Source: a virus
Lineage: Duplodnaviria; Caudoviricetes
Strand: one strand, 5' to 3'
Length of the DNA stretch: 29,238 nt
Virus record (IMG/VR): IMGVR_UViG_3300005662_000156
Coordinates: 1-29,238 of that record
Both the position numbers and the translations under genes were made by a program. Numbering within the stretch: position 1 is the stretch's first letter; every line of letters begins with the position of its first letter. The notes beneath the pieces are model-generated. The model had not been told where the DNA came from. It saw nothing but the letters and a program-made list of their open reading frames with translations, and searched no databases. Shown here piece by piece: positions 6,294 to 27,135 of this stretch.

Positions 6294-6603
6294 ATACAAA
6301 CTATTTCAGTGGTGTCCGATACAAGAAAAGGTTGTTTCAGTTGATGAAGTAATGGTGCGAGTTCATGCCAATGCAGCGCATAACTTTATCCACGACGAAA
6401 TGCCTCCCACGCGAAACCCACTAAATCCTAAAGAAATTTACACAAGCAAAAGCAAACTGCGAGCGGCTTATAGAGCTGCTGGCGCGATAGAAGTAGGTGA
6501 CTCATACGACCGTGGGTATTCCCCTGAAAAGGAAAGTTCCTCGCGAGAAAAGGCTGTAGTCGCTAATTTTATGAAACAAGTAAGGGACAGAGCAAATGGA
6601 TAA
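6286..6603 (+). CDS. Conserved hypothetical protein preceding scaffold
   Basis: 105 aa overlapping both neighbours; IYTSKSKLRAAY...IEVGD resembles small pre-scaffold proteins of podoviruses (recall). Confidence 0.7.
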   Translation: MSKYKLFQWCPIQEKVVSVDEVMVRVHANAAHNFIHDEMPPTRNPLNPKEIYTSKSKLRAAYRAAGAIEVGDSYDRGYSPEKESSSREKAVVANFMKQVRDRANG

Positions 6604-7687
6604 CGTAGAAAATCAAGTAGAAGAAGCGCAAGACGCTAAACCGTCACTAAGAGAGTCTATTGGTCGTTCTTTGGCCGCTCAAAATATAGATACTGAGCCA
6701 CAAACACCCACAATAATTGAAGATTCAAAAGAAGCCGTTGCCTTAGACGAATCCTTGGAAACTTTAGAACCTCAAGAAGCTCCTGCATTGCAAGAGAGTG
6801 TATCACCAGTAGAGACACCTGCAGTGGAGCGAATTCCATTGGTTCCTCCCGCAGATATGAACAAGTTGGAAAAAGACGCTTTTCTTAATCCAACAATAGA
6901 CAATGCACATATTTTGCAACAATACATGAACCGACGTGCGTATGAGACTCGCACGGATTATCAACGCAAGATGCAGGAAGTCGAGGATCTTAGAAAGAAA
7001 ACCTCGTCCGTTTATGACACGATTAAAGAATATGAAGATGACTATGCTCGCAAAGGCATAAACATTGGAGATATTACTAAGCGATCCATTGCTTGGGATA
7101 AGGCAATGCAAAGCAGTCCTGTTGAAACTGCATTGGAATGGCTGGACTCTTATGGCCTAACTTTAGAAGATTTAAAAAATCGTTCTATACCGCAAAATGC
7201 AGCAGCGGCTCAAGTTCCAACAAATTATTTGACTAGAGAGCAGGCCGAAAAAATAGCGGAAGATAAAGCTCGCGCTTTGTTTGAACAACAGCAAGAAGAA
7301 CAGAAACAATCTGCCGTTGCTTATTTTAATGAGCGAGTTGTACAATCTTTCATGACAGCCAAGCCACTTTTTCGCGACCCAGAAACAGCTTCGCAATTAG
7401 AAGCTGAAATGGCACCGATAGTAAGTGCGCTCTCTAGCACAGGCAAGTACAGCTCTCCCGAAGAGATCCTGGAAACTGCCTATAACTATGTAGTGGCTGG
7501 CAACCCGACCTTTTCCAGTCTTCAATCAGCGATGACTGCAAGGCCGATGGTAGAACAAAAACAAGCCGTCGCTCAAAAAGCAAAAGCGGCTTCAAAGACA
7601 ATATCTGGCTCCGCTGGTTCGGGGACTCCCAGATCGGAAATACGACACTTGAGGGACAACTTGCGGCGTCGTCTTGGCGGCGAATAG
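6596..7687 (+). CDS. Capsid scaffolding protein
   Basis: 363 aa; acidic disordered N-terminus, helical/coiled-coil body, basic C-terminal helix LRDNLRRRL; immediately upstream of the major capsid gene. Confidence 0.8.
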   Translation: MDNVENQVEEAQDAKPSLRESIGRSLAAQNIDTEPQTPTIIEDSKEAVALDESLETLEPQEAPALQESVSPVETPAVERIPLVPPADMNKLEKDAFLNPTIDNAHILQQYMNRRAYETRTDYQRKMQEVEDLRKKTSSVYDTIKEYEDDYARKGINIGDITKRSIAWDKAMQSSPVETALEWLDSYGLTLEDLKNRSIPQNAAAAQVPTNYLTREQAEKIAEDKARALFEQQQEEQKQSAVAYFNERVVQSFMTAKPLFRDPETASQLEAEMAPIVSALSSTGKYSSPEEILETAYNYVVAGNPTFSSLQSAMTARPMVEQKQAVAQKAKAASKTISGSAGSGTPRSEIRHLRDNLRRRLGGE

Positions 7688-7743
7688 CGCATAGCTATTT
7701 TAGTTGTCCTTCGTAATAAATTTAAAAGGACAACTAAAATGGC
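7651..7743 (+). promoter_or_regulatory. RBS/AUG-sequestering hairpin with competing alternative structure (candidate RNA switch)
   Basis: Perfect 15-bp inverted repeat 7697-7711/7726-7740 (18 bp with one G.U) covering AAGGA and ATG; 7651-7661 can pair instead with 7702-7712. Confidence 0.75.
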
Positions 7744-8695
7744 AAATTTAGAAGAAGCAGTGGTAGCTACCCTGTTTGATCAAAGCGATCAAATTGCGGA
7801 CGAGGTTTTACATCATAACCCACTTATGAAATCTCTTGATGCTCAGGGACTTATTCGTAGGTTCTCTGGTGGATATGAGCTTCGTAAGCCAATCATGTAC
7901 AATGATACGGCTCAGGGTAATTTCTATTCGGGTTATTCTTCGTTTAACCTTGATGCAATCGACGACCTTACGGCGTTCCGATTCGCTATTAAGCAGTGTT
8001 ATGAGCCTGTAGCTATCTCTGGTCGTGAGCGACGAGCCAACAGAGATCAAGCACAGCTTCTTGACCTTGTTGAATCGAAGATGAATGCGTCTATCGCTCG
8101 ACTTAAAAACACAGTGTCAACCTCGCTTCGTGGCGACGGAACTGGCTCTGGAGGACTTGAGTTTGACGGTATTAAGAAAGCGGTTTCGACTTCACCTTCT
8201 TCCGGTACCTATGGAACGATTGATCGTACTTCCAATGCTTTTGCACGTAACCTTGCAGTAAACGTCACACTTTCTGCTTCAAACGTACAAGAGCAAATCA
8301 CGGATGCAATCAGCCAGATCACTCGTGGTGATGAGCAGCCTGACCTTGGACTTATGGATCGAACAGCATGGAAATTCCTACATAGCTCGCTTACGGCTAT
8401 TCAGCGCATTCAGCTTCCTGCAAAGAAGGCTGTCGCTGGATTCCGCGTTCTTAGCTATGACGGATGTGACTTTGTGTTTGATGGTGGATATGGCTCTACG
8501 GTTCTTGAAACCAATAGCTGTCGCCTTTTGAACACAAAATACTGGTCGATGGACTTAGTCCGAGGAGCAGATTTTAAGCCTTTGGCACCTGAAATGACAC
8601 GTCCTGTTGACCAGGATGCGTTCTTCACCGTGATCATTGTAGAGGGTAACCTCTGCTGTGCTGCTCCTGCGCTTCAGGCTGTTATTTACGCTTAA
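7739..8695 (+). CDS. Major capsid protein (podovirus type)
   Basis: 318 aa; IADEVLHHNPL, FSGG, GDGTGSGGLEFDG, GTYGTIDR motifs match a podoviral major capsid family (recall); follows the scaffold. Confidence 0.92.
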   Translation: MANLEEAVVATLFDQSDQIADEVLHHNPLMKSLDAQGLIRRFSGGYELRKPIMYNDTAQGNFYSGYSSFNLDAIDDLTAFRFAIKQCYEPVAISGRERRANRDQAQLLDLVESKMNASIARLKNTVSTSLRGDGTGSGGLEFDGIKKAVSTSPSSGTYGTIDRTSNAFARNLAVNVTLSASNVQEQITDAISQITRGDEQPDLGLMDRTAWKFLHSSLTAIQRIQLPAKKAVAGFRVLSYDGCDFVFDGGYGSTVLETNSCRLLNTKYWSMDLVRGADFKPLAPEMTRPVDQDAFFTVIIVEGNLCCAAPALQAVIYA

Positions 8696-8713
8696 TTGTA
8701 GGAGGAACATAAT

Positions 8714-9193
8714 ATGTCAGGTTCAGGATCATTTGGAGTTAATTACAAGAAGGTATGGGATGGTGTTTCATCTCCTCTTCCTGCCAAGCTCAAAGACGTT
8801 GGCCATTCGACAGAAGGGTCTTTTGTATTTGTTCAAGCAAATGGCGCGATTGCTCAGTATGACTTTGTGCATATTGATACCGAAGGCCAAGCTGCTAAAT
8901 GCACAACGACTCTTGCTGCTCAAACTAGCCAGGTTGGTGCTGCTCAGGTAGCTGCTGCTGACAACGAATACCTTTGGGTATGGATTGGTGGAGAGCAGGG
9001 TGGTGGAACGGGTAAGGGAATTAAAGGCAGTATCCTTACTGGGTATGTTGCTAAAAACACCCTTTACACAACTGCTACTGCCGGTTCTGCTGATGACACT
9101 GCTACGACTAAGTTGATTGGAGTAGTGGGTCTTACAGCTACCACAGCAACTCAGGCTGTAGAGCTTACTTCCACGTCAATCATCACAACCTAG
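8714..9193 (+). CDS. Putative capsid cement/decoration protein
   Basis: 159 aa, A/T/G-rich beta protein directly after the capsid gene; strong SD AGGAGG. Confidence 0.65.
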   Translation: MSGSGSFGVNYKKVWDGVSSPLPAKLKDVGHSTEGSFVFVQANGAIAQYDFVHIDTEGQAAKCTTTLAAQTSQVGAAQVAAADNEYLWVWIGGEQGGGTGKGIKGSILTGYVAKNTLYTTATAGSADDTATTKLIGVVGLTATTATQAVELTSTSIITT

Positions 9194-20673: not shown

Positions 20674-21570
20674 ATGGGTTGGTCTGGAGGAAATTATAGC
20701 AAAGGAAACTCTTCTACTGGAGGGTGGGTAGGAGATGCATCCCTTGGTATAGGCATTGAAGCGGGGCGCCATGATACTCAAGACTCGGACTTCGCGACTG
20801 GTATTAATCAATGTGTTAATAAAGATGGTTCAAATGCCTTTACTGGCAATGCAAATCTCAACAACAATCGTATTATAAGCGTAGCAACGGCAACTGCTCG
20901 TACCGACGCGCCACAAGTTGCACAGGTACAAGACGGTGACTTTACCTGGCTTGGCACCACTGCTGGCACTGCTACAGCTATGACTGCTTCAGCTACTCCT
21001 GCGATTACAGCGTACAAAGCTGGTCAAAAGTTTAGGATGCTTACTGGCACTGCGAGCACTGGCACGAATGTTACAGGACATTCGTTAGCCATTAACGGTT
21101 TAGCTGCTAAAAGCATTAAAACTGGACAGGGCAGCTTTGATCCGACAATTGGTGATTGGATAGCAAATAGCTTGCTTGAGCTTGTTTATGATGGAACTAA
21201 TTTTAGAATAAACAATGCTGCTGGAACGTGGATAACGTATTCTCCTACGCTTACTGTGCCATCAGGGACCGCAACAGGAATTAGTTACGATCATGCCGTT
21301 TATCAAAAATATAGTCGTATTGTACATTGGCAACTAACCGTCTTGTGGACGCAAAATACATCCACGGCTGCTTACGTTGATATTACTTTTCCAATTGCTC
21401 CCTATTATAATTATCAAACCTTAGCGGTTACTGCACAAATTGGCGGGTCTACTGTCTCTGGTTTTTGTTTGCCAACAGCTACAACATTCAGATTCTATAA
21501 TTATAATCAAAATACTTGGGGCACTGGCCCAAATTTATTAAGTGTTGGTGGAATTTACATGAGCGCATAA
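20674..21570 (+). CDS. Tail fibre protein
   Basis: 298 aa, SD AGGAG; N-terminal DFATGINQCVNKDG anchor-like region, T/A/G-rich, followed by a fibre chaperone. Confidence 0.75.
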   Translation: MGWSGGNYSKGNSSTGGWVGDASLGIGIEAGRHDTQDSDFATGINQCVNKDGSNAFTGNANLNNNRIISVATATARTDAPQVAQVQDGDFTWLGTTAGTATAMTASATPAITAYKAGQKFRMLTGTASTGTNVTGHSLAINGLAAKSIKTGQGSFDPTIGDWIANSLLELVYDGTNFRINNAAGTWITYSPTLTVPSGTATGISYDHAVYQKYSRIVHWQLTVLWTQNTSTAAYVDITFPIAPYYNYQTLAVTAQIGGSTVSGFCLPTATTFRFYNYNQNTWGTGPNLLSVGGIYMSA

Positions 21571-21578
21571 GGATAACT

Positions 21579-21818
21579 ATGAAATGGAATGACTTGCTAA
21601 TTATCCCTTTTGGAAATGAAAATCCGCCAGAAGAAAATATTAAAGCGGCAATTCGTGGCTGGCGTAACCGTGAACTAGCAGCCTCAGACTGGACGCAATT
21701 ACCCGACGTAGACCTTGCAAACAAATGGGATTGGGCAGTCTATCGCCAATCATTGCGGGATATGATGGCGCAGAACGAAGACCCTAAACTGATTGTGTTC
21801 CCGACGCCTCCAGTATGA
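21579..21818 (+). CDS. Tail fibre assembly chaperone
   Basis: Likely start ATG 21579 (SD AAGGA); RNRELAASDWTQLPD...WAVYRQSLRD...FPTPP signature. Confidence 0.88.
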   Translation: MKWNDLLIIPFGNENPPEENIKAAIRGWRNRELAASDWTQLPDVDLANKWDWAVYRQSLRDMMAQNEDPKLIVFPTPPV

Positions 21819-27059: not shown

Positions 27060-27135
27060 TGGCTGAAGCGGGAGGATTCGAACCTCCGACATGACGGTTA
27101 ACAGCCGTCTGTTCTACCAACTGAACTACGCTTCA
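27060..27135 (-). tRNA. trnN: tRNA-Asn (anticodon GTT), CCA encoded
   Basis: 76 nt: acceptor TGAAGCG/CGCTTCA, D arm GTTC/GAAC, anticodon arm GACGG-CTGTTAA-CCGTC, T arm GGAGG-TTCGAAT-CCTCC, G73, CCA. Confidence 0.97.

Follow-up and report, generated by a model that had tools for sequence, protein, structure and literature searches.

The window, that is, the whole analysed stretch of 29,238 nucleotides, is a phage contig that makes up its entire record and carries terminase and portal genes, a gene of 363 aa and a major capsid gene. The features relevant to this analysis are as follows (positions in the window):

6596..7687, plus strand: likely head scaffold gene, 363 aa, directly 5' of the capsid gene; putative role
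7604..7633, plus strand: hairpin candidate H0 in scaffold codons S-G-S-A-G-S-G-T-P-R, with an outer-pair swap and near-fixed codons
7651..7661, plus strand: arm A, the anti-anti-SD, within scaffold codons R-D-N-L; pairs with 7702-7712
7667..7699, plus strand: inner helices of the ON fold (P2, weak, and P3), variable among relatives
7694..7712, plus strand: arm B, the shared switching strand, with an anti-AUG extension (7694-7701) and an anti-SD core (7702-7711)
7712..7725, plus strand: loop of the OFF hairpin, AU-rich; its length in relatives is 5-17 nt, and no fixed motif was seen
7726..7743, plus strand: arm C, comprising the capsid SD AAGGA (7726-7730), the spacer and the AUG (7739-7741); pairs with B
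7739..8695, plus strand: major capsid protein gene, 318 aa, Mx8-like (phrog_9953, E 2e-65)
27063-27135, minus strand: tRNA gene (Rfam), in an oppositely oriented region

The capsid protein is 33-34% identical to those of Myxococcus phages Mx8 and Mx9, the nearest annotated phages, and has a profile match to the major capsid protein of PDB entry 6j3q (E 2e-4). For the 363-aa protein (6596-7687), a PHROG/Pfam search returned no matches. Its single-sequence structure model (mean pLDDT 56) was helical and disordered with a basic C-terminal helix at residues 345-361, and there was a weak likeness to p47 of Mx8 (21% identity over 235 aa, pairwise E 0.015). From its position, predicted shape and the weak likeness to p47, we infer that this gene encodes the head scaffold. 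Across 27 representatives, the corresponding frame encodes 334-371 aa. Close relatives were found among uncultured viral contigs (299 in one search), three single-protein queries against GTDB genomes returned no relatives, and two further queries at 42-46% identity found no viral loci.

Between these two genes, the intergenic arm B can pair either with A, which leaves the capsid site open, or with C, which closes both the SD and the AUG. In sequence, A and C come close to repeating each other directly, with B as the inverse of both. The sequence-only reading had described a bistable RNA, in which an OFF hairpin competes with an ON fold drawn as a three-way junction of P1 (A:B), P2 and P3. All of its helices were recovered at the positions given: the OFF helix (7694-7711/7726-7743) contains 17 Watson-Crick pairs and one G.U and buries AAGGA and AUG, P1 (7651-7661/7702-7712) contains ten Watson-Crick pairs and one G.U, and P3 (7683-7688/7694-7699) six Watson-Crick pairs with the UAG stop (7685-7687) inside. 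Sharing arm B, the two folds indeed exclude each other. P2 can be formed as drawn but is weak (three Watson-Crick and three G.U pairs, probability 0.07-0.18), and a shifted helix is preferred within the P1 fold. In the window, the scaffold frame contains the 5' strands of both ON helices, and arm A is carried by the last 12 scaffold codons (L-R-D-N-L-R-R-R-L-G-G-E). The computed fold of 7630-7770, proposed earlier as a check, gave z = -3.9, with none of 200 shuffles as good. Only one of 5000 synonymous recodings equalled the native A:B duplex of the window, and 42 of 6410 opened the capsid site as well as the native codons.

We compared 134 unique related junctions. Left out were 6 of 201 records in one set (three not capsid, three too short) and 44 of 120 in the second (43 not capsid, one too short); L332, L337 and L150 were left out of alignment A2, and L184 was without the protein motif. 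Arm B was sought as the partner of the SD arm, with A unused. It was present in 118 of the 134 junctions, and these keep all three arms; 15 were scored as lacking B and one more lacks the protein motif. Two of those scored without B (L150 and L222) keep A:B with B:C shifted, and the 13 junctions with no B at all have gaps of 13-31 nt. The AUG is paired upstream in the OFF fold of 91 of the 118 junctions.

Where the first codon of arm A encodes Arg, it is one of the rare xGG codons (CGG or AGG) in 111 of 113 cases, as against 25 of 813 Arg codons in the capsid-gene background, and no xGG Arg codon was found in the 13 junctions devoid of B. At the third position of the Asp codon, A:B is U-A in 74 junctions, C-G in 26, U-G in 15, another combination in three and C.A in none; the same position of C:B is U-A in 75, C-G in 23, U-G in 19, A-U in one and, again, never C.A. 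By comparison, the fraction of C at 17 control two-fold sites is 33-88% when B has A. In 27 of the 118 junctions, A and C differ at the Asp position while each still fits B, which indicates an RNA pattern and not a repeat pattern. In L299, Asp is changed to Glu and all three arms are altered together.

Over 44 representatives, 97.2% of the A:B cells and 89.6% of the B:C cells are paired, values as high as these occurring in none of 500 shuffles, and the covariation score was better than 500 of 500 shuffles for both helices. Counts of double-change pairs were not above shuffles for either A:B or B:C (120 and 288 of 500). Slid registers of the two helices pair only 30-57%, and 115 of the 118 junctions pass the synonymous recoding test at p<0.05. 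Relatives have thus kept the pairings on which the sequence-only reading depended, namely the A:B and B:C cores, with G.U tolerated and C.A never seen. The remainder of the drawn ON fold did not fare as well: a three-way junction occurs in only 11 of 47 ON folds and the stop is paired downstream in 6 of 47, so that P2, P3 and the junction are ruled out as conserved parts by their weakness or variability. These patterns support two mutually exclusive folds under selection. Judged from codon usage and pairing, arm A is held by synonymous codon choice and B stays complementary to both A and C.

On a flank-based tree, two sites each had about four of eight independent pairs in which B changed the same way as A, and no pair in which the two went opposite ways (sign-test p 0.125 per site). 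B against C at one site was mixed (2.1 vs 1.2). Tree-independent contrasts are few and under-powered. The capsid protein tree, which left out 12 representatives, placed the main type in one clade (37 rows, support 96), sister to the short-gap clade, with an unsure root. As the main type is a single clade, the presence or absence of B amounts to one or two events, and loss is indistinguishable from gain. The 13 junctions without B imply that the switch is dispensable.

The same layout was found with other sequences in L332, L337, L338 and L342 (75-78% capsid identity), placed on separate branches among the short-gap forms. L332 uses R-D-I-L codons in a 13-bp A:B, L337 has arm A shifted to N-L-R-R, and L338 and L342 have arm A in an Arg run and arm B at the stop. 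The recoding test is passed by L332, L337 and L338 and failed by L342 (rank 9/30). From these sequences, the layout appears to exist in at least four versions within one phage family. In L337 (850-930) and L345, an extra long-range helix joins scaffold R-M-A codons to post-stop sequence and encloses the last ~20 codons.

A few neighbouring structures were also noted. In H0, one outer pair is U-A in 47 of 60 sequences and G-C in nine, and the majority-codon fractions at 7604, 7607 and 7628 are 0.97-0.98 vs a gene median of 0.56; RNAalifold gave no consensus for this hairpin. H0 is also seen in forms without arm B. The start of the scaffold gene overlaps the stop before it (6596-6604), and GGATAAC there matches arm B, likely by chance. 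Long-range pairing of B with this start (GGAUAAC at 6598) was rejected, being available in only 9 of 27 relatives, and so was a helix joining scaffold codons further upstream to capsid codons, which the long-gap forms do not conserve. Another GGATAAC (21571) with its inverse (21600-21606) lies just past the stop of the gene at 20674-21570 and could be a hairpin.

Independently of any helix register, we computed what it costs to open the capsid SD and its AUG in 63 representatives (47 long-gap and 16 short-gap) and in three states: native, synonymously recoded, and with the coding part held single-stranded (cleared). The long-gap medians were 3.3, 11.3 and 14.0 kcal/mol, respectively; native cost was below the recoded mean in all 47, and in 45 of them at most one of 30 recodings was as low. 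In the short-gap forms (n=16), the values were 2.25, 4.0 and 1.4. None of nine other junctions of the window displayed the native-codon opening pattern. In the model, clearing the coding end closes the capsid SD, which is the opposite of what defines positive coupling. The cost was 7.6 for naked RNA and 13.0 when a ribosome occupied A; footprints reaching 6, 9 and 12 nt past the stop gave 12.1, 10.9 and 6.6. Among 47 naked RNAs, just three had a mostly unpaired SD.

The capsid end of the window (8660-8716; stop 8695, next start 8714) behaved the other way round. There, the following gene has its SD paired with the final codons of the capsid gene, and the opening cost of this SD is 10.1 native and 2.2 cleared; medians over 34 representatives are 9.8 native, 5.5 recoded and 2.3 cleared. 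By these modelled costs, the capsid-to-next-gene junction would represent conserved, classical positive coupling, opposite in sign to the scaffold-capsid junction. The scaffold-capsid signature is missing from nine distant annotated phages of 24-34% capsid identity, among them Mx8, Mx9, BUCT555 and Brucella phage Tb; in these, cleared minus native cost is at most 1.5 kcal/mol. Mx8 (L081:1342-1495) and Mx9 (L082:1325-1495) have a structured gap of 146-163 nt before the capsid gene, where a shared helix of 10-12 bp covers the AUG at an opening cost of 19-21 kcal/mol that is not relieved by native upstream codons. In Stenotrophomonas phage BUCT555 (L084:1347-1489), the pre-capsid gap of 141 nt holds several strong competing hairpins.

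As for the balance of the two folds, ON was lower than OFF within the module in 27 of 47 cases (median -1.1 kcal/mol, with A kept unpaired in the OFF calculation). When the folded stretch also took in the 30 nt before A, OFF was ahead by a median of 3.5 and won in 88 of 95 cases, ON in seven. The modelled balance is therefore a matter of the stretch folded. The window is among the more OFF-leaning members: at equilibrium, its OFF fold has a probability of 0.999 and lies about 6-7.5 kcal/mol below ON, with a P1 probability of about 1e-5. Modelled barriers were 12.9 kcal/mol from ON and 11.9 from OFF; with barriers of about 12-13 kcal/mol, both folds are predicted to be long-lived.

The supposition that ON forms first during transcription agreed with the predictions for 94 of 95 prefixes and with 25 of 30 simulated runs for the window, whose transcript prefixes ending at 7711-7732 had a P1 probability of about 1.0. 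For five relatives, only 21 of 91 such runs resolved within the step limit. Folding prediction thus has A:B forming on nascent RNA before C exists, with the SD left free. When release of a ribosome from the stop was simulated, 400 of 428 non-trivial runs went to OFF, none to ON and 28 stayed unresolved; 160 further runs, already closed at the start, are outside the 428. From a fully open chain (188 simulations), 50 ended OFF, 18 ON and 120 unresolved. All mechanistic steps were computed with nearest-neighbour models and assumed ribosome footprints.

Ribosomes finishing the scaffold gene had been named as a possible trigger. This is likely: arm A sits inside the scaffold frame, 33-39 nt from the end of the stop, and every scaffold ribosome must consequently break A:B. 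The direction of the flip had been left open, and the models point to the ribosome turning ON into OFF. According to the mechanism that we propose, A:B would form first on the nascent RNA, before C, with the SD free. A ribosome entering the last 11-13 scaffold codons would strip A (in the window also P3 at the stop), whereupon B would snap onto C, and the hairpin would re-zip once the ribosome is gone. Most capsid would then come from transcripts with no ribosome on the scaffold end. By extension, the switch might set the capsid-to-scaffold ratio, and a two-way feedback would arise if translation of the scaffold is autorepressed, as in P22. We will call this inverse coupling, and favour it on account of the modelled footprint costs and the outcome of the release runs. 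That the junction carries a conserved three-arm, two-state switch on the capsid RBS, flipped from open to closed by ribosomes at the scaffold end, has in our judgement an even chance of being correct.

Several observations speak against inverse coupling. The anti-AUG strand begins at the stop codon (0-3 nt past it) in 47 of 67 short-spaced forms, in which a terminating ribosome would melt it; clearing the RNA just upstream of A lowers the cost from 7.6 to 3.7; and 18 of 68 resolved open-chain runs went ON. It is also counter-intuitive that the most abundant virion protein should be shut off. The first two points would suit positive coupling with a latch, in which the RNA rests in OFF until it is opened by a ribosome that nears the scaffold stop or terminates there, and A:B subsequently keeps the site open. 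In the short-spaced forms, moreover, the +12 footprint spares only 0-3 of 8-9 core pairs, and OFF is the equilibrium fold in the 88 of 95 cases mentioned above. We nevertheless consider such a latch unlikely, since 51 of 118 junctions have an arm B that begins 12-18 nt beyond the stop and remains paired, none of the simulated releases led to ON, native upstream codons sequester A no more than recodings do (20/47), and the 5' strands of both ON helices of the window lie within the scaffold frame.

Alternatively, the switch might work independently of scaffold ribosomes, either as a kinetic window, with ON a nascent trap that decays, or through short transcripts that start inside the scaffold gene and stay ON. 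The nascent ON fold and its barrier of about 13 kcal/mol would fit this, as would the conserved hairpin candidate just upstream and the precedent of the MS2 maturation gene (PMC4615214). It is rather improbable given that A lies in a translated frame, where any scaffold ribosome must break A:B, and no sigma-70-type promoter was seen on the plus strand before 7739, although this consensus may not be that of the host. Terminator-like sites were absent from the junction on both strands. Four RNA runs offered nothing but contigs, at small shares, and gave no information on transcript ends or abundance.

Slightly more doubtful still is a balance set by a protein that binds one fold, be it free scaffold, capsid or some host factor. 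Near-equal fold energies in many relatives would allow for it, and the N-terminus of P22 scaffold has been linked to translational autoregulation (bioRxiv 2022.12.13.520362). However, the loops vary in length and sequence, the inner helices are not conserved, and the four other versions share the layout and not the sequence. A static rheostat or thermometer, in which A merely weakens the SD hairpin to set its level or its response to temperature in the manner of lambda cIII, seems distinctly improbable: A does lower the equilibrium opening cost, and warming raises the predicted opening of 10 of 47 relatives by more than 0.3, but the median shifts only from 0.02 to 0.28, the window stays closed (at most 0.001) at all temperatures between 5 and 45 C, and one weaker hairpin would achieve the same without any codon constraint. 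That the arms are repeats at the DNA level (a protein site in triplicate) or due to chance, as the near-direct repeats A and C and their inverse B might suggest, can hardly be entertained when the variation tolerates G.U and forbids C.A, A and C diverge while each fits B, and GGAYAAY is not enriched in the window (15 vs 11.5 expected).

The element at the scaffold-capsid junction is real and under selection, is predicted to be two-state and has apparently not been described before. As the sequence-only reading had held, no earlier description of the arrangement was found in Rfam or in the literature covered, outside of which most subscription papers lie. An IMG/VR screen (PMC10690425) is described as having used intergenic regions only; it could hold the B:C hairpin alone, the key arm A being in coding sequence and outside its reach. 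Returning to inverse coupling, we tentatively suggest an inverse coupler written in synonymous scaffold codons, in which each completed scaffold shuts the capsid start on the same mRNA so that a transcript makes mainly one protein, and which exists in at least four sequence versions; with scaffold autorepression added, such a coupler would amount to a controller that balances the stoichiometry of the head by itself. Should the sign prove inverse, this would be a rare case of the translation of one gene repressing the next through RNA alone. At 90 nt, the element comes with natural compensatory variants and natural switch-less relatives.

Finally, we compared the junction with known systems. 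In T4 e/soc, the hairpin belongs to the early transcript, and a promoter located within it yields RNA that lacks the anti-SD arm. This analogy, drawn by the sequence-only reading, fits poorly because at the junction the upstream arm opens the site. In four-arm attenuators of the ermC type, a further upstream arm sequesters the anti-anti-SD until a ribosome stalls there. A four-arm model was rejected for the junction, the fourth arm being only a 4-bp UCCC/GGGA match and native upstream codons being no more closing than recodings. Rfam yielded only the tRNA at gathering threshold in the whole window, and five weak hairpin matches far below thresholds in 7450-7900. With no terminator, no leader peptide and no Rfam match, the switch is a member of none of the compared classes (trp, MS2 maturation, lambda cIII).

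The trp operon leader, a ribosome-position attenuator (PMC4615214), is similar in that the position of the ribosome decides whether a shared strand pairs with upstream or downstream sequence, and that smooth translation leads to OFF. The junction likewise has mutually exclusive helices that share one strand, one of them overlapping the upstream frame; it has neither an intrinsic terminator with a U-tract nor a short leader peptide. Its output is the predicted burial of the SD and AUG, whereas that of trp is a terminator, and its sensor is the end of a 363-aa structural gene instead of a short leader peptide with stalling codons. The MS2/Levivirus maturation leader also holds its anti-SD strand in a nascent metastable helix, which frees the SD before the inhibitory fold forms (PMC4615214), and at the junction, too, a permissive co-transcriptional fold is predicted to precede the inhibitory one. 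The MS2 leader, however, lies in a 5' UTR of an RNA phage and limits a low-copy protein, while here a DNA phage uses a coding arm of the upstream gene for its major capsid protein. Lambda cIII (Rfam RF01804) has two exclusive folds that set initiation in a DNA phage mRNA (PMC4908349); in contrast, the junction switch spans two genes and has little predicted temperature response. In the positive coupling of MS2 coat and replicase, upstream coding sequence pairs and ribosome passage remodels the downstream start (PMC9894550); the predicted sign is reversed here, as clearing upstream codons raises the cost from 3.3 to 14.0. P22 shares with the window phage a scaffold and a coat on one mRNA with unequal needs, as well as a basic C-terminal scaffold helix (PMC9894550, bioRxiv 2022.12.13.520362). 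How tailed phages draw unequal scaffold and capsid output from one mRNA is unresolved for P22, the translational control of which is described in PMC9894550 as still to be elucidated, and it is to this question that the junction may speak.
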